From an uncultured Chthonomonadaceae bacterium (GTDB lineage: Bacteria; Armatimonadota; Chthonomonadetes; Chthonomonadales; Chthonomonadaceae), in contig CAWIEK010000022.1 of assembly GCA_963835065.1 (NCBI GenBank), forward strand, positions 32,001 through 96,000: DNA of 64,000 bases, in the 5' to 3' direction. The first letter of the stretch is position 1. Each line of letters begins with the position of its first letter. Position numbers and translations under genes: made by a program. This document shows, one piece after another, positions 1,770 to 62,855 of the stretch. The notes beneath the pieces are model-generated. The model saw nothing but the letters and a program-made list of their open reading frames with translations. It was not told the origin of the DNA and did no database searches.

Positions 1770-4700
1770 TTAGAGGGGACAGATCAGGAAGAAGGGACAG
1801 CGACTGCACTCCTGGCCGGGGTTCGGCGCGAAGCGTTTCTCGCGGATGCCTTTGAGCGCTTCATCGTACTTTGCCACGCGGGCGGGTTCCAGGTGCTTTT
1901 TTTCTTCCACTTCGCGCTGTTCGCCGTCCTGTAGATACCCAAGCACGATTTGTACGGGGAGGTCGGATTGCTGCCGGGCGGCGTGACGGGCAAGAGCAAG
2001 GCGTGGGTTGGTATGGTCCGAGTCGCCGCGCTGCGCCTTGTACGTGGTGAGGCGCCATTGGCCTTCGGCGGTTTCTTCAGCGTGGTCTACGCGCACCTGA
2101 ACCGCGCCATGCGCCAACTGCGCCGTCAGTTCCACGCCCCGCTTTTCTTCCGTTGCGCCCCCGACGTTGTGATGCCCTGCCGCCAGCATCCCCCGCGCTT
2201 TTGCCTGCAAAACCCGCGCATGAGCATTGTCGGGCGCATTGGGGCGCGTGTGCCAGGCTTGACGCAGTTTCTCATTGATATCTTCCGGTGTCGGCGTCCG
2301 GCCTTCCGCGCGTTCGGCTTGCAGCCAGGCAACGGTTTCCTGCAAGGTGTTGTGAAACGTCAGGTACGTGGTGTCCTCGCCACCCTGCGGCAATTTCAAC
2401 ACGCGCTGATAGTAATACTGGCGCGGACAGTTCCGATATTGCTCCACCGCCGAAGCGGAAAGCGTGAGCGGTTCTTCCTGTGGTTCCTCCATTATTGTAC
2501 TGCCGTTTTGCGTCACGTCCTGATTACTCGCCGCTTCCTGTGCCTGCGCTTCCGCCTCTACCCGCGCTTCTATCTCAGGGGAGTTGGAGAACGTGACCAC
2601 ATCGTTTTGCGGTCCTTCCTCTTTTATGTCGTCTTTCCAGTCCACATGCCGCGCGTTGCAGGCTTGCAGCGCGGCCTCGCACGAGGTAAGAAGGGCGCTT
2701 GGCGGTATAGGCTTTCCGTTCCACGTTGCCGGGCGCGACAGCACCAGCACATCCCGCGCCCGTGACAGGGCGACAAAAAACAGACACTCAGCCTCGCTGT
2801 TTTCCTCTTCCGCTTCACTCGGCTCACCCTGTTCCGTGTCTGAATCCGACGCATCCAGCCAGGAAGCGGGCGGCGACACCATACTTCCCATCTTGCCCAA
2901 CGGAAACTGCCCTTTTACTAAATTCGGCAGGTACACAATCGGGAATTCCAGCCCCTTGCTTTTGTGAACGGTCATCAGGCGGACACCATCCAGTTCGGCA
3001 TCGTCGCCCGATACGCGCAGGGCTTTTTCCTGTCCGCAACGCAGCAGAAACCGCAAGTGGTTCAGCAAGGCCGCCTGCTGATTCTCGTCCGCTTCAAACC
3101 GCGCTGCCAACCGCAATGTCACCATCAGCAGTTCATGGACGGCAAGCAATTTCTGCCGCCCCGCAACGGAGGAATCACGGAGCAGTGGCAGGAGGTAATC
3201 GCTCGTCTCAAACAAATACCCTGCCAGAAATGCCCACGCCGTGCCGTGATACAAATACGGTTCGATATGCCGGAATAACTTGAGCAGCGCGTTTTGTCCC
3301 TGCGCGGAAATGTCGGGCAGGTGGGCAGCCAATGTCAGCGCGGCGGGAAAGGTTTTGCGGCGTTCACGGGCGGCTTGCAGCAGCAGGGACACATCCTGCG
3401 CGGGAATATCATACTCGGCAAAACGGGCTACCCGCGCCAGCGCGGTTCCTTCCGGCTCACAGGCCAGCGACAGCAGGGCAAGCAAATCTTTGGTTTCTTC
3501 CCGGTCGAACAAGCCGCTTGCGTGTTGTGTCTCGATGCCGTTCGCGCCGAGCAGTTCGGCAAGGCGGCTTGCCTGCCGGTGCGTGTTGCACAAAATCACT
3601 TGATCGCGCAGTCCCACTCCCGCTTCTTCCGCCTGCCGGATATGCGCGGCCATGCCTGCCGCCTGCGCTTCCTCGTTGTCCGCGACGGCAACGGTCACGG
3701 CAGGCGTACCGGGCGCGTCTTGGGTTGCGGAAGGATCGGAGCGGTGTGGCTGCCAGTCGGCAAACGTCGCCGTCGCGCCTGCCATCGTGCCGGCATACGC
3801 GCCGAACATCGCCACGAGCGCAGGCCGCGAACGATAATTGCGCTCCAGTTGAATGCGCTGCCCACCCGGAAAATCCTCATCGAACTTGCGCACGTTTGCC
3901 GACGACGCGCCCCGAAAACGATAGATCGCCTGCCGCAAATCCCCTACCGCCCACAAACCGCGCCCATTCCCCGCCAATCGCTGCACCAGTTGAGCGCTCG
4001 CGCGGTTGATGTCCTGATACTCGTCGGCCAGAATATGCGGGTACTGCGCCTGCCACCGCGCCTTTACGTCCGGGCACGTATCCAGCAGTTCCACGCTGCG
4101 CATGATCAGGTCGCCAAAGTCGAGTTTGCCTTCTGCCTTTAGAAGCTTTTGATAGACGGCGTAAACATGCGCCACTTCCTGCGACTTTTCCGCGATTTCA
4201 AGGTGCTTTTCCACGTCCGCCTTTTTGGTGTAGCGCGATACGTCAGCAAGCTGCCGCTGCGCGACTAAGGCGTACTCCTGCGGCGTTTTCAGTTCATCCT
4301 TGGCGCGGGAAATACAGTCAAGAATGTCCGGGAACGGCAGAATGGGGAAGCTGAGGTACTCCAGGCGGCGCAGAGTCAGCCTGTCCATGTTGTCTTGCAG
4401 CAGTTTGATGGCGTCCGGCATGTCCAGCAGGTCGGGCGCGGCGGGAAGGCCAATGCGCGTACCCTCCTTGCGCAGCAGTTCCCTGCCGAACGCATGAAAC
4501 GTGCCGATCCAAACCCGGTCCGCCAGGTCGCCCACTTCGCCCCTGAGCCGAGTGTGCATTTCTTCCGCCGCTTTGTTGGAAAACGTCAGGGCAAGAATGT
4601 TTTCCGGCGCAACGCCCCGTTCCGTCAGCAGAAACAAAATCCGCGCAATCAGCGTCCGCGTTTTGCCCGTTCCCGGCCCCGCGTCCACCAGCACCGGCCC

Positions 4701-5469
4701 GTATTCGATATGGGCGGCGGCGCGTTGGCTGTCGTCGAGTTGAGGGTTGAGAGGAAAAGACAATGATGAGTGATGAGTGATGAGTGATGAATGGGAATTC
4801 AATTCATCACTCATCATTCCGCGTTCAGCATTGTCTTCTCCCCCTCTCCCCCTCTCCCCCTTTCCTTTTCTATTCCCCGTTCCCTGTCCCCTGTTCCCTA
4901 ACAAGAGCGCGCTTGCCAGTTGCGTGAGGACGCAGGAGAGGGACAGGCCGGAGTGGGCGGCGAAGCGGCTTGCTTTCCAGCGGTGTTCCAGAAACAGCTG
5001 ACGGAGAACGGGGCCGGGGAGCAGCAATTCCGCCGCGAACAGGTTGGCTTCGGATTCGCGGCGCTCCTTGCGGCTGTAGCCTTCGGCAAGCTGGGAGTTG
5101 GGCAGGCGGAATCCGGGCGCGGCGAAAGCGTCGGGGGTGTCTTCGGCAAAGCACTGGTCGTGGCCGATTTCGGGGTGAAGCCAGATAGTGCGCGAACTCA
5201 TGCGCCTGCGCAAACAACTGCCGCTCGCGCCGAACGGACGCGCCGCCCGCGTACCAGATGCCGGGTATGTCGCGGTCCAGCACGGCATGAGCGCCCGCCA
5301 GCAGGCCGTCACCCGGCGGCACGGATATTCGCGTTACATCCGTCGCTTCCTGCGCGGCTTCCAAAAGCATTTCGGCAGGCGGCAGCAAAGGCGCGTCTTC
5401 CGGGAGGAAGGCGCGCAATTGCAAATGCTGTTCGTAAGCGCGGCGGCGCAGGGCGTTCCAATCGGGCAT
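1770..5469 (-). CDS. ImmA/IrrE-like metallopeptidase fused to UvrD/REP SF1 helicase and a C-terminal PD-(D/E)XK-like Fe-S domain (one frameshift near 5185)
   Basis: HEFAH (HExxH) in ORF 4870..5484 continues into ESEANLFAAELLLP in ORF 1770..5312. Helicase motifs AGPGTGKT, TFSNKAA, DEYQD, VGDLRQAIYRFRGA, LERNYRS, TVHKSKGLEF, FVALSRAR. C-terminal CPRQY...CSRCPFFLIC. Confidence 0.88.
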
Positions 5470-5539
5470 GGCAGTCCTAAACAACTTTTCACGCGAAGAT
5501 AGTATAGTTTACCCGAACGGACGCGCGTTTGTTTTGGGG

Positions 5540-6196
5540 CTACGGTTGTTCCAGCCAGAACTGTTTTTGTTCCGCGTTCATGTCGGTGCAGGCGCGAACC
5601 GCCGCGTCGAAATCTTCCGCCTGACCAGCTTGCGGGACGCCATCCGATTTGTAACTGGCTCCCATTGCCAGCGTACTTGGACGCGCAAGATAAGCGCGTA
5701 CCTGCTCCGTGCCCGTATCGAGCGCCTGCGCCAGCCGATTGACCAATTCCTCCGGTATGGTGGACAGCCTAATCAACCGCTGTTGCAACTTGGCGACAAG
5801 AGGCAGCCCGACGCCGATTTGGGACGCCAGCGTTTTGGGCGTCAAGCCCTGCGCTTTGGCCGCTTGAATCAAATCTTCAAGAGCGGGGACGGGCGCGGGT
5901 TCCAGAGCGGCAAAATAGCGCGTCCGCATTTCAGCCACGACGCTGCGCCCGATTGCCAGCGTATGCGCTTCGCCTGCCGCATCCGGCGTCGCGGTTTCCA
6001 GGGCGCACTCCAGCGTGGGCGCGTCTGCCGCCCATCCGATGAGTTCGTCGGCAAACTGCGGGTAGCGGTTCAGCCAGGCGCGCAGGGATTGCGGCGTGGC
6101 GCTTTGCCGATCCTCGCTCCAGTCGGCAAACAAAATATCTATAGCGTTCTGCTGCCGCTCCATGTCGGCTTGATTATTTTGGTTCATCAGGATCAC
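5540..6196 (-). CDS. Hypothetical protein with an XRE-like helix-turn-helix in the C-terminal half
   Basis: AKAQGLTPKTLASQIGVGLPLVAKLQQR resembles a Cro/C1 HTH. Lies between the sigma factor and the IrrE-helicase gene. Confidence 0.65.
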   Translation of the reverse strand: MILMNQNNQADMERQQNAIDILFADWSEDRQSATPQSLRAWLNRYPQFADELIGWAADAPTLECALETATPDAAGEAHTLAIGRSVVAEMRTRYFAALEPAPVPALEDLIQAAKAQGLTPKTLASQIGVGLPLVAKLQQRLIRLSTIPEELVNRLAQALDTGTEQVRAYLARPSTLAMGASYKSDGVPQAGQAEDFDAAVRACTDMNAEQKQFWLEQP

Positions 6197-6263
6197 CCAT
6201 TGTCTTGCGAAAGACTACAAAAGAAAGGATTGTAGAGCCGCCTGCGCGGTGTATACCCAGGCT

Positions 6264-6291
6264 ACTAGCCCGCGCGAAACCAAACCGGAAA
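6264..6291 (-). promoter_or_regulatory. Candidate ECF-type promoter TTTCCGGTTT-N14-TAGT (copy 1, upstream of the HTH gene)
   Basis: Minus strand tttccggttt ggtttcgcgcgggc tagt; identical boxes and spacing at 7429-7456. Confidence 0.5.
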
Positions 6292-6318
6292 GCAAAATTA
6301 AGAAACAGCTAAAAATAA

Positions 6319-6486
6319 AACCGCAAAGAAGCAAAGGAAGCAAAGAAAAAGCACACAAGAGAAGATATACCCACCTGGTAAACACTGATGAAATCGAAGC
6401 AAGAAAGTTTTATTGCGGTATTTGTAACTCGTCTGTAGGCGTTTTTCTTCTCTTCGCCTCTTTGCGTTCTTTGCTTCTTTGCGGTT
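6319..6486. repeat. Inverted-repeat element built of ~9-mer units
   Basis: aaccgcaaagaagcaaaggaagcaaaga ... tctttgcgttctttgcttctttgcggtt. Confidence 0.75.
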
Positions 6487-6494
6487 CACTCCCC

Positions 6495-7265
6495 TCAATG
6501 CGTTTTCTCGGCTCGCCATTCTTCCAGGCGTTTTTGGGCGCGGGACAGGAGGTTGCGGACGGTGCGGTCTGTGACCTGCAGGGTTTCGGCGATCTGTTCC
6601 TGCGACCAGTCTTCGTAATGGTACAGGATAAAGGCTTTGCGTTCCGTATCGGGCAGGACGCGCAGGGCTTCGCGCACTTCCACGCGCTCGTGGGCGGACA
6701 GGCTTTCACTGTCGGCGGTACGCTCGAAGTAATCCGTCGTGTGGCCTTCCTCGTCTTCGATGGGCGGGGGCGCGAACTCGGCCTGCGCCATGCCGCGATA
6801 CTTTTGCACGATGTTGAGCAGCCGCCGTTTCAGGCACAGCCAGAAGCGCACTTCCCAGAACTCGCAGCCCCGGCTGTCATTGAACAGGTCTTGCAGCATC
6901 TGTACCTGTATGTCGCGCTTGCAGTCGTCCACATGCTGCGGCGACAGTTTCCAGCAGCTGACGTGCTGGTGAATAAAGCGGGCGCTGCGCTCGATAAGCA
7001 AGTCGGCGATCTGCCAGGCGTTTTCCTTGTCGGCGCGCTGCGAACTGCGCTGCCAGATGCGCAGCATACAGACAAGGGTTTCTTCCTGTACCCACTCCGG
7101 CGCTTTGCGATCCGGCAGGCGGGCATCGCGCCAAAAAACGCTTTGGGGCGCGCGCAGCAGGCGCTGTACCTGCGCTTCCACTTGCGGTTCGCGCGTTCGG
7201 CCTTCGGTTTGGAACCCGGCAAGCGCGTTCGGGGGGCTTGCTGTGGGCAATGTCTGCTCGGACAT
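6495..7265 (-). CDS. ECF-type RNA polymerase sigma-70 factor with N-terminal extension
   Basis: Region 4 LRVLPDTERKAFILYHYEDWSQEQIAETLQVTDRTVRNLLSRA; divergent region 2 (VDDCKRDI...FWLCLKRR). Confidence 0.85.
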   Translation of the reverse strand: MSEQTLPTASPPNALAGFQTEGRTREPQVEAQVQRLLRAPQSVFWRDARLPDRKAPEWVQEETLVCMLRIWQRSSQRADKENAWQIADLLIERSARFIHQHVSCWKLSPQHVDDCKRDIQVQMLQDLFNDSRGCEFWEVRFWLCLKRRLLNIVQKYRGMAQAEFAPPPIEDEEGHTTDYFERTADSESLSAHERVEVREALRVLPDTERKAFILYHYEDWSQEQIAETLQVTDRTVRNLLSRAQKRLEEWRAEKTH

Positions 7266-7428
7266 GATTGACTCCGCCGGATGTTGAAAATTTGTCTTTT
7301 CGTCGGCTATCTGGGATAATAGACTATAGCAAAGCTGCGTTCGCGCCGTCGAATGGGAAGGAATTTGCAGGGTTATTGTACCCTGCGCGGCGCGGTTTTA
7401 GTTGATTTTTGTGCGCGTATTTTTTGTT

Positions 7429-7456
7429 TTTCCGGTTTTTGGTTCCGGCCTGTAGT
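7429..7456 (+). promoter_or_regulatory. Candidate ECF-type promoter TTTCCGGTTT-N14-TAGT (copy 2, upstream of the 7515 ORF)
   Basis: tttccggttt ttggttccggcctg tagt. Confidence 0.5.
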
Positions 7457-7514
7457 TCGTTAATTGTGGGGTGAAATCCTGCCTGATAGTCTGGTGAAAT
7501 CGAGGAACATAACG

Positions 7515-7856
7515 ATGAACGAAATGGCTTATGATACGGAACTGACCGCCGGGGATGTGTACGATCAGTTGTGCGAACAGGTGGCGGCGGCGCGAACGCG
7601 GGCCTTAATGGGCGAACGCGCCGAAGCCCTGCGCCTGTTCCAAACGGCTTCGCTGGAATACGAGCGGTTCCGCGACGCGCTGCAAGGCTTGCCGCTTCAT
7701 GCGCTGGAACACGACTTTACAGTCACGCGCCAGATTTTGAGCGTGGATCGCTGCCTGTCGGAATTAGCGCCGGTTGGCCCGACGGAATTGGTTCCCGTTC
7801 TCGCGGCGGAACAGTCTCGCCCGCGCAGCCGCAAGCGTACCGCCAAAGCCGCTTAA
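7515..7856 (+). CDS. Small helical hypothetical protein, divergent from the sigma gene
   Basis: ATG at 7515 preceded by SD gagg; protein-like composition with a basic tail. Confidence 0.6.
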   Translation: MNEMAYDTELTAGDVYDQLCEQVAAARTRALMGERAEALRLFQTASLEYERFRDALQGLPLHALEHDFTVTRQILSVDRCLSELAPVGPTELVPVLAAEQSRPRSRKRTAKAA

Positions 7857-8051: not shown

Positions 8052-8744
8052 GTGGTAGTGTATATGAAGGTAGATGCTCGTAAACAAGCGTGCGTAATGA
8101 GAACAGAGAACGGCGCATCTATAGGCGAAATTGCCATAAGTCTGAGTGTTTCAAAAAGCACAGTTAGCCGTTGGGTTAAAGACATTTGCTTGACGGAAGA
8201 ACAGTTGCAAAAACTATCAGAACGTAATCCAATTTATAATAATCAAGTTCGTGGCAGTAATTGTTTGAAGCAAAGCAGTAAAGTTGTTCGGCAACAGTAT
8301 CAAGAGGAGGGGCGGCAACGTGCCCGACGCGCCAATCCACTGCATTTAGCTGGATGCATGCTGTATTGGGCTGAAGGTAGTAAAAGCCGCAACGTTCTGA
8401 CGTTCACGAATTCTGATCCTGATATGGTTTCGTTTTTCGTGCGCTTCCTTCGATGCTGTTATGATCTTACAGAAAGTGATATAACGGTTTGTGTAAACTG
8501 CTTTGATGATTGTCACTCTGCTGAAGACATTGAGCGGTTCTGGCTAGAAAAGTTGAGTTTGCCTGTTGAATGTTTGCGTAAAACAACACTGAACTACCAC
8601 TCAAGCTATTCACAAAAGAAGCGTTGCAATACGTTAGCTTATGGCACTTGCAGAATAAATGTTTGTCGAACTCACATAGTCCAGAGCATCTACGGCGCAC
8701 TTGCAGAGTACGTCGGCTTAGATGCAGCAAAATGGTTAGAATAG
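8052..8744 (+). CDS. HTH + LAGLIDADG-like hypothetical protein adjacent to tRNA genes
   Basis: N-terminal HTH (GASIGEIAISLSVSKSTVSRWV), then LAGCMLYWAEGSK...FTNSDP...YGTCRINV. Visibly AT-richer than the flanks. Confidence 0.65.
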   Translation: MVVYMKVDARKQACVMRTENGASIGEIAISLSVSKSTVSRWVKDICLTEEQLQKLSERNPIYNNQVRGSNCLKQSSKVVRQQYQEEGRQRARRANPLHLAGCMLYWAEGSKSRNVLTFTNSDPDMVSFFVRFLRCCYDLTESDITVCVNCFDDCHSAEDIERFWLEKLSLPVECLRKTTLNYHSSYSQKKRCNTLAYGTCRINVCRTHIVQSIYGALAEYVGLDAAKWLE

Positions 8745-8753
8745 TTACACAGC

Positions 8754-8824
8754 GCGGGAGTAGCATAATGGTAATGCACTTGCCTTCCAAGCAAGCCACG
8801 CGGGTCCGATTCCCGTCTCCCGCT
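8754..8824 (+). tRNA. tRNA-Gly(TCC)
   Basis: Acceptor GCGGGAG/CTCCCGC, anticodon arm CTTGC-CTTCCAA-GCAAG, atypical T loop TCCGATT. No encoded CCA. Confidence 0.9.
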
Positions 8825-8859
8825 TTTTCATTTACTTCGTTGTTTACTTATGTTTTTAC

Positions 8860-8933
8860 GCGCCCGTAGCTCAGTGGATCAGAGTATCCGGCTTCTACCC
8901 GGTTTGTCGGGGGTTCGAGTCCCTCCGGGCGCA
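8860..8933 (+). tRNA. tRNA-Arg(TCT)
   Basis: Acceptor GCGCCCG/CGGGCGC, anticodon loop CTTCTAC, T loop TTCGAGT. Confidence 0.93.
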
Positions 8934-8946
8934 TTGAAGTTTTTTC

Positions 8947-8975
8947 TTGACAGATAGCGTAAATTATGGCATACT
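8947..8975 (+). promoter_or_regulatory. Sigma70-type promoter for tRNA-His
   Basis: TTGACA-N17-CATACT with an extended TG. Confidence 0.7.
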
Positions 8976-8987
8976 GTTGGTGTTTAT

Positions 8988-9062
8988 GGCGATTTTAGTT
9001 CAGTTGGTTAGAACGCCTGTTTGTGGAGCAGGAGGTCACCGGTTCAAATCCGGTAAGTCGCC
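8988..9062 (+). tRNA. tRNA-His(GTG)
   Basis: G-1/C73 plus acceptor GCGATTT/AAGTCGC, anticodon loop TTGTGGA, T loop TTCAAAT. Confidence 0.93.
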
Positions 9063-9082
9063 CTTATCTGTAAATTGTAAGT

Positions 9083-9122
9083 AAACGAGGCTTATAGTGA
9101 AAAACTATAAGCCTCGTTTGTT
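9083..9122. terminator. Intrinsic (probably bidirectional) terminator after the tRNA cluster
   Basis: Stem aaacgaggcttatagt/actataagcctcgttt followed by gtt. Confidence 0.75.
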
Positions 9123-9478
9123 ATGCGGTCTGTGGCGACATTTGCCATATCGTAATCAACCATGTTACGCTTACGTCGGCACGTATCAAAATAAGCAGCC
9201 AGCGCTGTCATACTGGACCCCATTGCCAGTTCGACAGCCTCAAAAGTGGTTTGATGATGCCCTATTCCGGTGACGCGGTAGCCTTTGCAGGCGAGAACCA
9301 TTTTGGCGATTTGCAGCACGGCGTTGTAGGCAGTGGCAAAGCGGCGGTCCGCGGAAAGATCGGGAATAACCGCATCCGCCAGATCACGCGCCACTACCGC
9401 CCGAAGCGCGGTCAGTTCCGCTAAACTGGTGACATGCGTTCTCACTTTTTTGTCGGCTAAGAGCTGTGACCAACTCAT
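9092..9478 (-). CDS. HEPN-domain protein (toxin-like; possibly 3'-truncated)
   Basis: FATAYNA...GHHQTTF...RRKRNMVDYD (Rx4-6[HY]-type motif); overlaps the upstream MNT gene. Confidence 0.7.
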   Translation of the reverse strand: MSWSQLLADKKVRTHVTSLAELTALRAVVARDLADAVIPDLSADRRFATAYNAVLQIAKMVLACKGYRVTGIGHHQTTFEAVELAMGSSMTALAAYFDTCRRKRNMVDYDMANVATDRITNEAYSFSL

Positions 9479-10115
9479 CTTCGCTTCCTTTTAAGTAGAT
9501 TTTGGCTGCGTTCAAAACGGTGGTAACGAAGTGATTGCCTTCCTCCGCTTTATGCGCAAACTCCTGCCAGGTGAACAGCGTGGGATTGACCGGACGCCGC
9601 AGTTGCTTTTCCGCTTCACGTAAGGCCGGGGCTAACTCCACGAGGCGCAACTCTCCGATAAGCATCAGGTCAATGTCACTGGCGGACGTTTCCTCATTTC
9701 GCGCGAACGAGCCATAAACGAAGGCAAATTCCGTTTGCGTCCAATAAGGTTGAAGTATCTCCTGTAAAACGTCCGCAACACCAACGGTTTTTATAAGCAA
9801 CCCGCGCAGTTCCGGCAGTATAGGGCACTGAGCGTCGGGTTGGTAGTAAACCCTGTTGCCGTCCCGACGACTTACAAGTATGCCTGCTTCCACCAGGGAG
9901 AACAATTCCCGTTGCAAACTTGACGGCGTGACATGCAGATAATGCGTCAGGTCGCTCATGTACCACCAGCGCTCAGGATGCAAAATGGTGGCTGCAAGAA
10001 CAGATTGGCGCGTCTTCGGCATCAAACTATCCAAAAGGAGGGTTGTACGCATATTGCGTACATTATTACGCAAATTGTGTAAAAGCGCAAGGTGAAGTTT
10101 ATACTTTTCACTCAC
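9384..10115 (-). CDS. wHTH + minimal nucleotidyltransferase (MNT) antitoxin-like protein
   Basis: N-terminal winged helix (SSLQRELFSLVEAGIL...GNRVYY) plus YGSFARNEETSASDIDLMLIG (GSx10DxD). Start probably near 10052. Confidence 0.8.
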   Translation of the reverse strand: MSEKYKLHLALLHNLRNNVRNMRTTLLLDSLMPKTRQSVLAATILHPERWWYMSDLTHYLHVTPSSLQRELFSLVEAGILVSRRDGNRVYYQPDAQCPILPELRGLLIKTVGVADVLQEILQPYWTQTEFAFVYGSFARNEETSASDIDLMLIGELRLVELAPALREAEKQLRRPVNPTLFTWQEFAHKAEEGNHFVTTVLNAAKIYLKGSEDELVTALSRQKSENACHQFSGTDRASGGSGA

Positions 10116-54713: not shown

Positions 54714-57383
54714 ATGAAAATTCAGTTCGACAGCGCACAGGCGTATCAGCTTGACGCTATTCAGGCCGTCGTGGATGTGTTCGACGGGCAGCCGCTTGCG
54801 CAGGGGCAATTTGAGATTAATATGCAGGCCGGCAGCCAACTGCTTTCCGAATTGGGCCGGGGCAACGCCTGCGCGCTTGACAACAACGCCCTGCTTGCCA
54901 ACGCCGCCGAGATACAGGCGCGTAATGATATTCTCGCTACGCCCGCCCTGCTGAAACGGGGGTTCGGGGCAGTGGACAAAGGCAGCCCGTTTCTCAACTT
55001 TGCCCTCGAAATGGAAACCGGGACCGGAAAAACGTATGTGTACCTGCGAACCATTTACGAACTCCACGCCCGCTACGGCTTTGCCAAGTTCGTGATTGTC
55101 GTGCCAAGCGTCGCCATACGGGAAGGCGTAAAAACCAGCCTTGCCCTGATGCGCGAACATTTCGGAGCCTTGTACGGCAATCAGGGCGCGGATTACGCCG
55201 TGTACGACAGCAAGCGCGTCACCATGCTGCGCCAATTCGCGCAAAGCAACGCCCTGCAAATCATGGTCATCAATATTGACGCCTTCAACAAGGCCGCCAA
55301 CATCATGAACCGCAGCGACAACGACAATCTGAACGGACGCAAGCCCATTGAGTTCATTCAGGCAACGCAGCCTATCGTGATTTTAGACGAGCCGCAAAAC
55401 ATGGAGTCCGAGGCCAACAAAGCATCTATCGCAAGCCTGAATCCACTTTGTACGCTGCGTTACTCCGCCACCCATAAAACGCTGTACCAACTGCTGTACC
55501 GTCTCGATCCCGTCCGGGCTTACGATCTCGGCCTTGTCAAGCGTATTGAAGTGGACAGCGTTTTGGAGGAAGGCGACTTCAACCAGCCCTTTGTGCGCGT
55601 GGAAAGCATCACGGCCACCAAAACCAAAATTACGGCCAAACTCACCCTGCATATCCGCATGGCAACCGGAATTGCGCCCAGAACGGTAACGGTCAGCAGC
55701 ATGGGCGAAAGTCTACAGGAACTTGCGAATGGACACGAGGTATACGCGGACTATGTTGTAGAAGAAATCAGTTTCGCCAAACAGTTCATCTGCTTTGCCA
55801 ATGGCGTTCAACTGGATGTCGGGCAGAGTCAGGGCGAACACCGCGAAGAGGTGATGCGGGCGCAGGTGCGGCAAACAATTTTCAAGCATCTGGAAAAAGA
55901 GCGGGAAGTCAGTAGCCTGCCGGACGGACAGCGCGTAAAAGTGCTGTCGCTGTTCTTCCTTGATAAAGTCGCCAACTACTACGCGCTAGACGGCAAAATT
56001 CGCCGGTGGTTTGTGGAATTGTATAAGGAACTGGCGCACAACCCGCGTTACGCGCTGCTGCAATTGCCGCCTGTCGAGGACGTTCACAACGGCTATTTTG
56101 CCACCACAAAAGGCGTTGCCAGAGACACGGCGGAAGGACGCAACACGCAGGCCGATGACGAAGCGTACAAGCTGATTATGCAGGACAAAGAGCGGCTGAT
56201 GGACCGCGCCACGCCACTGCGCTTTATCTTCAGCCATTCCGCCCTGCGTGAGGGGTGGGACAATCCCAACGTGTTCCAAATCTGCACACTCAACGAAACG
56301 CGCTCCGAAACCCGCAAGCGGCAGGAAATCGGCAGAGGATTGCGCCTGCCGGTTGACGAAACCGGGCAGCGCGTCCGCAACCCTGATATAGCGCGTTTGA
56401 CGGTTGTTGCCAACGAAAGCTATCATGACTTCGCGCAGGGTTTGCAGAATGAAATTGAGGAAGACACGGGCGAAAAGTTCGGCAAGCGCATCACCAACGC
56501 CCGTGACCGTCGCAAAGCCAACCTGATTGACGACTGGCAGGGCCATGAAGACTTCAAAACGCTTTGGAACCTGATACGGGCGCGCACCCGCTACCGCGTC
56601 GAATACGATACGGTCAAACTGATTGATCAGGCAGCGGACGCCCTGCGCAATCAGCCCGCTATTCACGCCCCCACCATCAAAACGCGCAGCGACCAGTTGA
56701 TTTTAACGCGCAGCGGCATCCAGACGCAATTGAACGCTTCCAGAGAAACCCGCGCCCATTACATTCTCCATGTGCTGCCGGATATGCTTGGCTACTTGCA
56801 GCGCGAAACTCGCCTGACGCGCGGTACGCTGGCGCAGATTTTAATTCAGTCCGGCAGGCTGCCCGATGCGATTGTGAACGCGCAGCAGTTTCTGGATTGC
56901 GCCACGCGCGCCATCAAATACGTCAAGCACAATCTCATGGTAGACGGCATCAAGTACGAGCGCATTGAAGGCGAAAACGGCGCATGGGACATGATGCTGT
57001 TTGAAGCAAAGGAAATCAACGGCTACGCGGACCGCATGGTGGAAACCATGAAAAGCCTGTATGACGCCATTGAGTGCGACTCGCAAACCGAAATCAAATT
57101 CGCGTCCGGGCTGGAACATCGCAATGAGATCAAGTTCTTTTTCAAGCTGCCGCGCTGGTTCAAAATCGAAACGCCATTGGGAACGTACAACCCTGATTGG
57201 GCGGTTGTCAAGCAGAACCTGCCGGATGAAACCCGCTTGTACCTTGTGCGCGAAACCAAATCCACCACCAACGTTTTTGATATACGCCCGACGGAAGAAG
57301 GCAAAATCACCTGCGGACGCGCCCACTTCGCTGCGCTGTTGGGCGTTGACTTCGCCAAAGTCACCGATCCCGCCGACGTATAA
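54714..57383 (+). CDS. res: Type III restriction endonuclease (Res)
   Basis: METGTGKT, DEPQN, RYSATH, LREGWDNPNVFQIC, QEIGRGLR, YNPDWA...ETK. Confidence 0.95.
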   Translation: MKIQFDSAQAYQLDAIQAVVDVFDGQPLAQGQFEINMQAGSQLLSELGRGNACALDNNALLANAAEIQARNDILATPALLKRGFGAVDKGSPFLNFALEMETGTGKTYVYLRTIYELHARYGFAKFVIVVPSVAIREGVKTSLALMREHFGALYGNQGADYAVYDSKRVTMLRQFAQSNALQIMVINIDAFNKAANIMNRSDNDNLNGRKPIEFIQATQPIVILDEPQNMESEANKASIASLNPLCTLRYSATHKTLYQLLYRLDPVRAYDLGLVKRIEVDSVLEEGDFNQPFVRVESITATKTKITAKLTLHIRMATGIAPRTVTVSSMGESLQELANGHEVYADYVVEEISFAKQFICFANGVQLDVGQSQGEHREEVMRAQVRQTIFKHLEKEREVSSLPDGQRVKVLSLFFLDKVANYYALDGKIRRWFVELYKELAHNPRYALLQLPPVEDVHNGYFATTKGVARDTAEGRNTQADDEAYKLIMQDKERLMDRATPLRFIFSHSALREGWDNPNVFQICTLNETRSETRKRQEIGRGLRLPVDETGQRVRNPDIARLTVVANESYHDFAQGLQNEIEEDTGEKFGKRITNARDRRKANLIDDWQGHEDFKTLWNLIRARTRYRVEYDTVKLIDQAADALRNQPAIHAPTIKTRSDQLILTRSGIQTQLNASRETRAHYILHVLPDMLGYLQRETRLTRGTLAQILIQSGRLPDAIVNAQQFLDCATRAIKYVKHNLMVDGIKYERIEGENGAWDMMLFEAKEINGYADRMVETMKSLYDAIECDSQTEIKFASGLEHRNEIKFFFKLPRWFKIETPLGTYNPDWAVVKQNLPDETRLYLVRETKSTTNVFDIRPTEEGKITCGRAHFAALLGVDFAKVTDPADV

Positions 57384-62700: not shown

Positions 62701-62855
62701 CGGGCTTGCAAACGCTGTATCTTGAACAACACACAGATTACTGATCTGACACTCTATCGCCGGTCTGACGGACTTGCAAACGCTGTATCTGAACAGCACA
62801 TCACATTACTGACCTGACACCACTTGCTAGACTGACGGGCTTGCAAACGCTGTAG
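59730..62855 (+). pseudogene. NACHT NTPase + leucine-rich-repeat (NLR-like) protein with many frameshifts
   Basis: Walker A GPAGCGKT, Walker B LVLLDGLDE, ATSRP, NPLLCALLC, EFVHNALRDYLA; 22-aa LRRs (LAGLTGLQELYL...DLTP). Confidence 0.82.
62205..62855 (+). repeat. About ten 66-bp tandem units encoding LRRs
   Basis: Recurring gccggtctgacggRcttgcaa...acacgcagattactga. Confidence 0.88.

Follow-up and report, generated by a model that had tools for sequence, protein, structure and literature searches.

The window analysed here, a stretch of 64,000 nucleotides (nt) from an uncultured Chthonomonadaceae bacterium (phylum Armatimonadota), carries a real, conserved and apparently unpublished three-component system. 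It comprises an atypical sigma factor of the extracytoplasmic function (ECF) type, a partner protein with an XRE-type helix-turn-helix (HTH) domain, and a fusion of an M78 (ImmA/IrrE) peptidase with a superfamily 1A (SF1A) helicase and a nuclease-like tail. We observe its domain content and synteny, the invariant catalytic residues and degenerate nuclease site of the fusion, and a promoter-like motif with its placement. We propose that the trio may form a DNA-damage switch, in which damage is sensed, the partner is cleaved and the sigma factor is released, a full chain of events that we slightly favour.

The three genes and their conservation

The window lies on contig C22 of the genome assembly G000 (8.0 Mb, 71 contigs). 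An earlier note on this DNA had claimed three co-oriented genes, the last joining an ImmA/IrrE peptidase to a superfamily 1 helicase. All three are present on the minus strand of the window, and Pfam finds Peptidase_M78, UvrD and UvrD_C in the fusion. The genes and their parts, with lengths in amino acids (aa) and the motif score from a position weight matrix (PWM), are:

6495..7265, minus strand: gene of the atypical ECF-type sigma factor, 256 aa, matched by Pfam Sigma70_r4_2, NCBIfam TIGR02937 and the family profile
6264..6291, minus strand: promoter-like motif TTTCCG-N18-TAGT, about 70 nt 5' of the HTH gene, PWM score 26.8
5540..6187, minus strand: gene of the XRE-HTH partner, 215 aa
1770..5469, minus strand: full fusion gene, with Pfam Peptidase_M78, UvrD, UvrD_C and PDDEXK_1
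5184..5469, minus strand: 5' part of the fusion, the N-terminal half of the M78 peptidase, ending in HEFAH (5202-5188), after which the frame is broken
4899..5183, minus strand: remaining M78 peptidase (invariant Glu at 5057-5055, EANLFAAELL) and an IrrE/CapP-like central helical HTH
4752..4898, minus strand: linker between peptidase and helicase, with an in-frame high-copy short repeat
2736..4736, minus strand: superfamily 1A helicase resembling UvrD, PcrA and AdnB, with GPGTGKT, DEYQD, VGD-Q-IY, NYR, T-H-KG-EF and V-x-SRA
1770..2465, minus strand: tail of PD-(D/E)xK fold with four invariant Cys and a degenerate motif III

Homologues keep the three genes together. Among 52 fetched loci, counting only those with room on the relevant side, the sigma gene lies directly 5' of the HTH gene in 48 of 48 and the fusion directly 3' of it in 36 of 43. 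Peptidase and helicase form a single open reading frame (ORF) of at least 1000 aa in 32 of 33 relatives, the exception coming from an indel-ridden assembly. Both the linkage and the fusion had been assumed in the earlier note, and both hold in these relatives.

The HTH partner was found in 51 of the 61 genomes of the order and in 66 of 301 sampled genomes of the phylum. In this phylum sample it is concentrated in four families, here called f1 (16/17), f3 (14/15), f14 (13/13) and f29 (15/19), mostly in single copy, and is nearly absent from the others. Within a set of 30 chosen genomes, the fusion is present in all 18 HTH-positive ones, including two where it has been relocated, and in none of the 12 HTH-negative ones, bar one weak unrelated match. 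The flanks of the Armatimonadota loci, and of the trio in the window, hold unrelated genes and tRNAs and no adjoining immune operon; for this lineage the locus is a core regulator on the chromosome rather than an accessory island. All genomes of the four families also carry lexA. The trio as a substitute for LexA was accordingly rejected, and the system would instead supplement the SOS response. Members of the family also occur beyond the Armatimonadota: a search with the HTH profile at a threshold of E 1e-10 retrieved 1316 clusters, named fusions come from Chloroflexota, and the peptidase has matches in 50 plasmid records from Proteobacteria and Cyanobacteria. The fusion, found also in the cultured species Chthonomonas calidirosea, is already in databases under automatic names.

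Across 32 full-length fusions, HExxH, the third-ligand Glu, GPGTGKT, DExQD, the residues of motifs III-VI and the four C-terminal Cys are all invariant. The peptidase belongs to M78, with H90, E91, H94 and E135 invariant in these sequences and the Pfam M78 match over its cut-off. All 10 plasmid copies examined likewise have HExxH, Walker A, DExQD and the four Cys. An AlphaFold2 model of an intact fusion homologue (predicted local distance difference test, pLDDT, 86; predicted template modelling score, pTM, 0.88) finds its best structure matches in UvrD, PcrA, AddA and AdnB, with a template modelling (TM) score of 0.74 by target length for AdnB and an alignment over about 1200 columns for AddA. 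In the fusion a small helical HTH follows the peptidase, as in IrrE and CapP, and then comes the UvrD helicase. The loop after HExxH is acidic and of low confidence in the homologue model.

The tail had been described as an AddB/AdnB/Cas4-like domain with four Cys. The Cys residues (C945, C1156, C1159 and C1165), predicted to hold an Fe-S cluster, are indeed invariant in the 32 sequences; the catalytic lysine position is not conserved. Motif III of the PD-(D/E)xK fold has Lys in 5 of 32 fusions, the acidic position preceding it is Asp in 4 of 32 and mostly Arg, and the window reads TTYK; the Asp of motif II is present in 21 of 32. Because the lysine position is not conserved, the tail is probably a pseudo-nuclease rather than a working nuclease, and it probably serves as an Fe-S-bearing DNA-binding cap.

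The helicase and tail superpose on AdnB, and in G000 the fusion lies downstream of a motif copy. Both would fit a fusion that is mainly an AdnB/PcrA-like enzyme for repair or anti-phage DNA processing, a mere target of the sigma factor with the peptidase in a side role. We regard this as very improbable: invariance extends to the peptidase residues no less than to the ATPase motifs, the nuclease site is decayed, and the fusion co-occurs strictly with the HTH gene. Gabija was also considered and rejected, as the PADLOC GajB matches of the fusion reflect the generic UvrD core and no GajA-like gene is adjacent. The PADLOC capP profile matches the window's fusion fragment at 0.002 and a plasmid homologue at 8e-11.

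In the window the fusion is not in one frame. The earlier note had claimed an indel near position 5185, and comparison with relatives places one surplus base within 5184-5187 (near 5186), just after HEFAH; the motif R-E-S-E-A-N-L-F-A-A-E-L-L follows in another frame. We judge the base to be quite probably an assembly error, since two same-genus relatives are in frame at the frameshift codon, a related environmental contig (run X4) lacks base 5186, and recA of the same assembly is also frameshifted. Were the insertion real, this copy would be a natural pseudogene with only a 204-aa truncated product that lacks the third zinc ligand, and its switch could not be triggered. The extra base does lie outside any homopolymer, and in the closest environmental contig (X1, about 96% identical) there is no gap at 5186 among the rows listed, with the exact base unreadable. 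A pseudogene is nevertheless unlikely given the frameshifted recA, the in-frame relatives and the intact state of every motif downstream of the break, and it would touch only this genome, not the system.

Three further observations concern these sequences. The frameshift in the recA gene of G000 (C54:62220-63213) splits it near 62740, and another recA fragment is located at 55399-55641. Sequences similar to the linker repeat (4762-4790) occur at 169 places in the genome, and the summed contig depth over the repeat is 160-600 in three sequencing runs. The gap between the sigma and HTH genes contains a stretch of 205 bp (6294-6498) that is replaced by about 17 bases in contigs from runs X1 and X4; it looks like a strain-specific insertion just 5' of the HTH-gene motif.

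The sigma factor had been called an atypical ECF sigma, and the profiles agree. It scores over the NCBIfam cut-off for TIGR02937, Pfam Sigma70_r4_2 matches at 1e-15, and the family profile matches solved ECF sigma factors (RpoE/SigE chains) over regions 2-4 (positions 78-248). With regions 2 and 4 only and a length of about 250 aa, it falls in the ECF group (group 4). Region 2 is the atypical part, with an FWEVRF motif and no Pfam Sigma70_r2 match, and the region 4 helix carries TDRTVRN. An N-terminal extension of about 60 residues is conserved, with R25 nearly invariant and E62 invariant. The main text and part of the supplement of Casas-Pastor 2021 (PMC7826278) contain no ECF group with an IrrE/M78 or UvrD neighbour in Armatimonadetes. 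Our sigma alignment (A4) reaches only sigma factors of the FWEVRF type, and its all-Armatimonadota result understated the range, which wider searches corrected.

The partner combines a helical N-terminal domain that carries L-x2-W-x3-YP-x5-L and belongs to no known family, an XRE-type HTH (residues 104-169), a loop with Y179-K180-S181, and C-terminal helices. In its structure model (pLDDT 94) the HTH is followed by coil. The HTH is closest to those of NGO0477, CapH, ImmR and DdrO (Z 8.0, 7.7, 6.8 and 6.6), middling values that speak to fold only, and Foldseek gave no match at E 0.001 or better for the partner. The W-x3-YP-x5-L pattern may resemble N-terminal domains of planctomycete kinases beside ECF sigma factors. 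Position 179 is Y or F in 96% and position 180 K or R in 92% of 159 partner homologues, and the pair lies in coil in the model. CapH is cut at F82-R83 (PMC13228613) and DdrO at L106-R107 (PMC12828697). The aromatic/basic pair in coil resembles these cut sites and, like them, follows the HTH on its C-terminal side; we therefore predict Y179-K180 to be the scissile bond.

A promoter-like motif, its genes and the plasmid form

Motif sampling upstream of 43 sigma genes returned TTTCCG, and inspection added AGT at a fixed distance, giving TTTCCG-N18/19-KAGT. The motif is bipartite, non-palindromic and strand-specific, has fixed spacing and usually lies 10-200 nt before starts. In 31 of the 43 training regions it is oriented towards the sigma gene; on the other strand it faces the divergent gene. 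No conserved palindromic operator was found upstream of the sigma genes, where the motif search returned the bipartite element only.

With a matrix trained on 50 sites from other genomes, the motif was found before the sigma gene in 18 of 21 held-out Armatimonadota loci, a set that excludes seven loci duplicating training ones and one that lacks upstream DNA. G000 has 26 sites scoring at least 20 against 2 in the reversed genome, and 16 against none at a score of at least 22; the HTH-gene motif of the window (26.8) is the third best in the genome. A strict pattern gave 729 real versus 297 reversed-control matches in 59 trio-positive genomes, 37 of which exceed the control by at least 5. In 235 trio-negative genomes the same comparison gave 753 versus 1339, with 5 genomes exceeding the control by at least 5; seven ambiguous genomes were omitted. 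The -35 and -10 elements vary between clades (TTTCCG or TTACCG; KAGT, TTGTA or CGA[CT]T). This variation tracks clades and therefore cannot alone tell the sigma factor from the HTH protein as the reader of the motif. XRE repressors bind palindromes. Because the element is bipartite, non-palindromic and strand-specific, with fixed spacing and close to starts, the sigma factor is very probably the protein that reads it.

Two genomes or groups depart from this pattern. G278, of family f29, has a motif excess of 16 versus 3, yet no HTH match; its trio may be missing from an incomplete assembly. The genus g3 has two or three partner-gene copies around the sigma gene (loci L063, L066 and L070) and little or no motif excess in two genomes scanned, which suggests a diverged version of the system.

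The genes behind the motif were compared in 30 genomes at a score of at least 14. Of 18 recA copies in trio-positive genomes, 8 have the motif in the 900 nt upstream, against 0 of 12 copies in negative ones. For ssb, it lies within 1100 nt in 10/18 trio-positive and 0/11 negative cases, and within 500 nt in 7/18. As background, 32 of the 6183 ORFs of G000 have a motif upstream at a score of at least 17. The G000 target list comes from 49 proteins scanned from 40 selected sites. Genes that follow G000 sites include polA, ssb, gyrA, recJ, a WGR-PARP gene, ybaB-recR, SRAP, NADAR and a WGR-DNA ligase. Also among them are recA, whose site is some 600 nt away, Uma2 nucleases, a PIN module and a number of VOC and DUF899 genes. 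Elsewhere sites precede, among others, thpR-recA, recN, radA, ruvA, recQ, ung and PARP (G084); ssb, recD2 and a Cas3-HD gene (G023); rpsF-ssb (G050); and mutL, a restriction methylase and YhcG (G227). The predicted regulon is a small core (the locus itself, ssb and recA) with a variable periphery. This trio-linked motif before DNA-repair genes and defence operons supplies the output that the earlier note lacked.

Some of these predicted targets merit mention in their own right. The gyrA gene of G000 (C44:197158-200424, L246) contains an intein (Pfam Intein_splicing). In two distant genomes, a strong copy of the motif precedes the gene for a protein of 255 or 304 aa (L234:226-990 and L311:462-1373). 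Nothing named was found for it in Pfam, NCBIfam or PHROGs, where only PHROGs without assigned function matched; it is a candidate new DNA-repair protein, with the homology of the two judged by eye. Genes of Uma2 putative endonucleases in G000 share motif and leader (C49 at 637486, 643919 and 647239; C68 at 76125; C11 at 17373). Three Uma2 genes of G000 are confirmed by Pfam, and in G023 and G084, too, sites are followed by Uma2 genes.

Beside the trio, the window carries a second copy of the motif and a divergent gene:

7429..7456, plus strand: promoter-like motif TTTCCG-N18-TAGT, 5' of the divergent gene, PWM score 24.1
7515..7856, plus strand: divergent gene for a 113-aa helical protein, conserved in the family, a predicted regulon member

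The 113-aa protein has no named match in Pfam, NCBIfam or PHROGs. Given its family-wide conservation and the motif upstream, this gene is also part of the unit. Further along lies a lower-GC ORF with an HTH (8052-8744, about 225 aa), perhaps a homing-endonuclease-like gene, directly before a tRNA-Gly/Arg/His cluster (8754-9063). After the cluster, a nucleotidyltransferase (Polbeta) and HEPN gene pair (9092-10115) resembles an MNT-HEPN toxin-antitoxin module.

The trio also has a mobile form. We examined 10 plasmid loci, picked for taxonomic spread from sequence-search matches. By the family profiles, all 10 hold the trio in the same order, directly followed by a Bil/Bub ubiquitin-like operon. 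The reading frames of the sigma and HTH genes overlap in all 10, as is usual for sigma/anti-sigma pairs. PADLOC identified BilA, B and D in L349, BilA, B and C in L350, BilA in L342 and bilABCD in the metagenome locus L340. By annotation, sequence and gene sizes, L348, L352, L355 and L356 are Bil-like, and L351, L353, L354 and L357 are multiubiquitin/ThiF (Bub-like) operons. A variant of the motif lies before the ubiquitin-like gene, in the short gap after the fusion, in 10/10 plasmid loci: TTCCG-N17/18-(TTGTA or CGA[CT][TC]) in seven, and TTACCG-N17-CGATT, read by eye, in three. Six have a second motif copy before the sigma gene. In a FastTree phylogeny of 45 fusions (five near-duplicate Armatimonadota rows and two below the length filter dropped), 13 plasmid and metagenome copies form one clade with support 1.0, under a midpoint root only.

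The surroundings of the mobile trios vary. On the metagenome contig L340 (930-14480) the trio is flanked by a Dcm/Vsr pair on one side and a full bilABCD operon on the other. The trios of L349, L351 and L356 adjoin pairs of SbcCD-like exonuclease and ATPase genes; in L356, WYL and WGR genes additionally lie immediately upstream. Bil has been characterised from inducible promoters (10.1101/2022.05.11.491447). In Dataset EV1 of PMC13373217, the Bub operons of Rhizobium sp. IRBG74 and Leptolyngbya boryana have empty regulator columns; judged by names and gene order rather than identifiers, these operons are probably our loci L357 and L353. Some CapP/CapH rows of the same dataset may be this fusion.

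The proposed switch and competing explanations

We propose the following sequence of events. The helicase would load on single-stranded or broken DNA and thereby activate the fused zinc peptidase, which would cut the partner at the conserved Y179-K180 loop. With the partner, likely an anti-sigma factor, lost, the sigma factor would be freed and would transcribe from TTTCCG-N18/19-KAGT promoters. In the four Armatimonadota families, the output would be thpR-recA, ssb and genome-specific repair, nuclease and detoxification genes, beside an intact lexA. On plasmids and in other phyla, it would be the adjoining Bil/Bub ubiquitin-like operon with its motif variant. Transcription of the HTH and fusion genes is predicted to be driven by the motif 5' of the HTH gene, which would provide negative feedback. 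A switch of this kind had been suggested in the earlier note. Synteny, the invariant catalytic residues, the candidate scissile bond and the trio-linked motif favour it, while the tail is now better read as a pseudo-nuclease.

The single steps differ in strength. The partner is quite probably the substrate of the peptidase. The signal is likely damaged or single-stranded DNA: the fusion carries an SF1A motor, single-stranded DNA (ssDNA) activates IrrE and CapP, and the predicted targets point the same way. That the partner acts as an anti-sigma factor is, on balance, our preference; it is suggested by the tight linkage of the sigma and HTH genes, their overlapping frames and the extra domain of the partner.

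The main competing explanation concerns this last step. The partner could be a repressor like CapH or DdrO, and its cleavage upon damage would then de-repress the sigma gene or the sigma factor's promoters in a two-step cascade. Its XRE HTH is well conserved and closest to those of CapH, ImmR and DdrO, and the candidate cut lies C-terminal to it, as in CapH and DdrO. The characterised M78 substrates are all repressors in the accessible parts of PMC12828697, PMC13228613 and PMC13373217. In G000, moreover, the sigma gene lacks a self-promoter and the HTH gene has its own. Nonetheless, we consider a repressor the less probable role, at roughly the level of a minority view: the sigma genes have no conserved palindromic operator upstream, the partner has an extra conserved N-terminal helical domain, its frame overlaps that of the sigma gene in the 10 plasmid loci, and sigma and HTH genes stay paired when the fusion relocates.

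Cleavage could also activate rather than destroy. The peptidase might trim the N-terminal extension of the sigma factor, which would then be a pro-sigma, or it might turn the partner into a co-activator whose HTH recruits the sigma factor to TTTCCG promoters. The length of the extension, its two conserved residues and the atypical region 2 would suit such a role. It is improbable all the same, as the best M78-type scissile bond sits in the partner and the M78 substrates described in the sources accessible to us are XRE proteins that lose function when cut.

Several findings weigh against release of a sigma factor from an anti-sigma as the general explanation. The partner keeps an intact XRE HTH, which an anti-sigma factor does not need, and a wide structure search matched this HTH only, with no known fold for the N-terminal domain, which that search barely covered. 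No GAF domain was detected in the fusion by Pfam, in the homologue model or among its structure matches; in IrrE and CapP this domain completes the ssDNA groove (PMC13228613). A Cys within 25 residues of HExxH, the switch-loop position, is present in only 15 of 32 fusions, the window's included, on a generous count. The G000 sigma gene has no motif of its own (best score -6.6), which counts against simple autoregulation here, and 9 of the 59 trio-positive genomes do not exceed the control with the strict pattern. Regulon content is unstable: polA was rejected as a conserved target, having a site in only 1 of 18 other genomes; recN, radA, ruvA, recQ, mutL, recD2 and lexA of G000 lack sites; and family f29 has none before recA (0/5 copies) or ssb (0/4). 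Many high-scoring sites precede VOC/glyoxalase, DUF899 and Uma2 genes rather than core repair genes. Related genomes, finally, are not independent samples.

Comparison with known systems

The literature searched in full text contains no description of this architecture, with most subscription papers outside that coverage; the earlier note likewise knew of no characterised system of this kind. It may be, at a little below even probability, that the trio represents an unrecognised class of DNA-damage response, in which a motor-protease destroys a soluble anti-sigma factor and frees a dedicated sigma factor. Such a class would include a mobile controller of Bil/Bub operons and a core regulator of recA and ssb that operates in four Armatimonadota families beside LexA, as IrrE/DdrO does in Deinococcus. 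If true, it would add a route to the few known ones (LexA/RecA, PafBC, IrrE/DdrO, CapW, CapP/CapH and CapK/CapS), and would be the one with an ATP-driven helicase sensor and a sigma-factor output. It would also offer a candidate native regulator and promoter for the Bil and Bub ubiquitin-like systems. With the promoter consensus, the candidate scissile bond and the catalytic residues in hand, the mechanism can be tested directly in E. coli; a cultured source of the fusion exists in C. calidirosea.

The closest likeness in immunity is CapP with CapH, which shares the M78 peptidase with central HTH, an XRE partner resembling CapH, and a candidate cut of the F/Y-R/K type (PMC13228613, PMC13373217). 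CapP and CapH control CBASS, Bil, Bub and other immune operons; the plasmid copies of the trio directly precede Bil/Bub operons. Unlike in CapP, the GAF domain is replaced in the fusion by an SF1A helicase and an Fe-S pseudo-nuclease. The partner, twice as long as CapH, has additional domains at both its N and C termini. The unit here also includes a sigma factor with a promoter class of its own, and the predicted regulon in Armatimonadota is chromosome-wide.

DdrO represses a palindromic operator, in contrast to the non-palindromic, bipartite, promoter-like motif described above. IrrE (PprI) and DdrO of Deinococcus are likewise a lineage-wide, single-copy M78/XRE pair beside lexA (PMC12828697). 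As in their radiation and desiccation response, recA, ssb and gyrase genes are predicted to be controlled, here from predicted sites only. IrrE, however, has a GAF domain and no motor, and there is no dedicated sigma factor in IrrE/DdrO. ImmA and ImmR of ICEBs1 also pair an M78 peptidase with an XRE substrate (Z 6.8 for the ImmR N-terminal domain). Unlike the fusion, ImmA is a stand-alone peptidase of 169 residues (PMC12828697) that controls element excision, without helicase or sigma factor.

A sigma-based parallel is DdvS/DdvA of Myxococcus xanthus, where an ECF sigma factor and an anti-sigma factor stand over an anti-phage island and release by proteolysis has been proposed (PMC11506125). 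There, DdvA is a transmembrane zinc anti-sigma factor with a periplasmic TPR-CHAT domain, whereas the system described here would be cytoplasmic, with a DNA-helicase sensor. AdnAB and AddAB have in common with the fusion a UvrD-like motor and, after it, a four-Cys domain of PD-(D/E)xK fold. In contrast to them, the fusion is a single polypeptide with an N-terminal protease, has no conserved nuclease lysine, and has no gene for a partner subunit adjacent.

Taken together, the system resembles IrrE/DdrO and CapP/CapH and is a member of neither: it has no GAF domain, likely a helicase as its sensor, and likely a sigma factor as its output.

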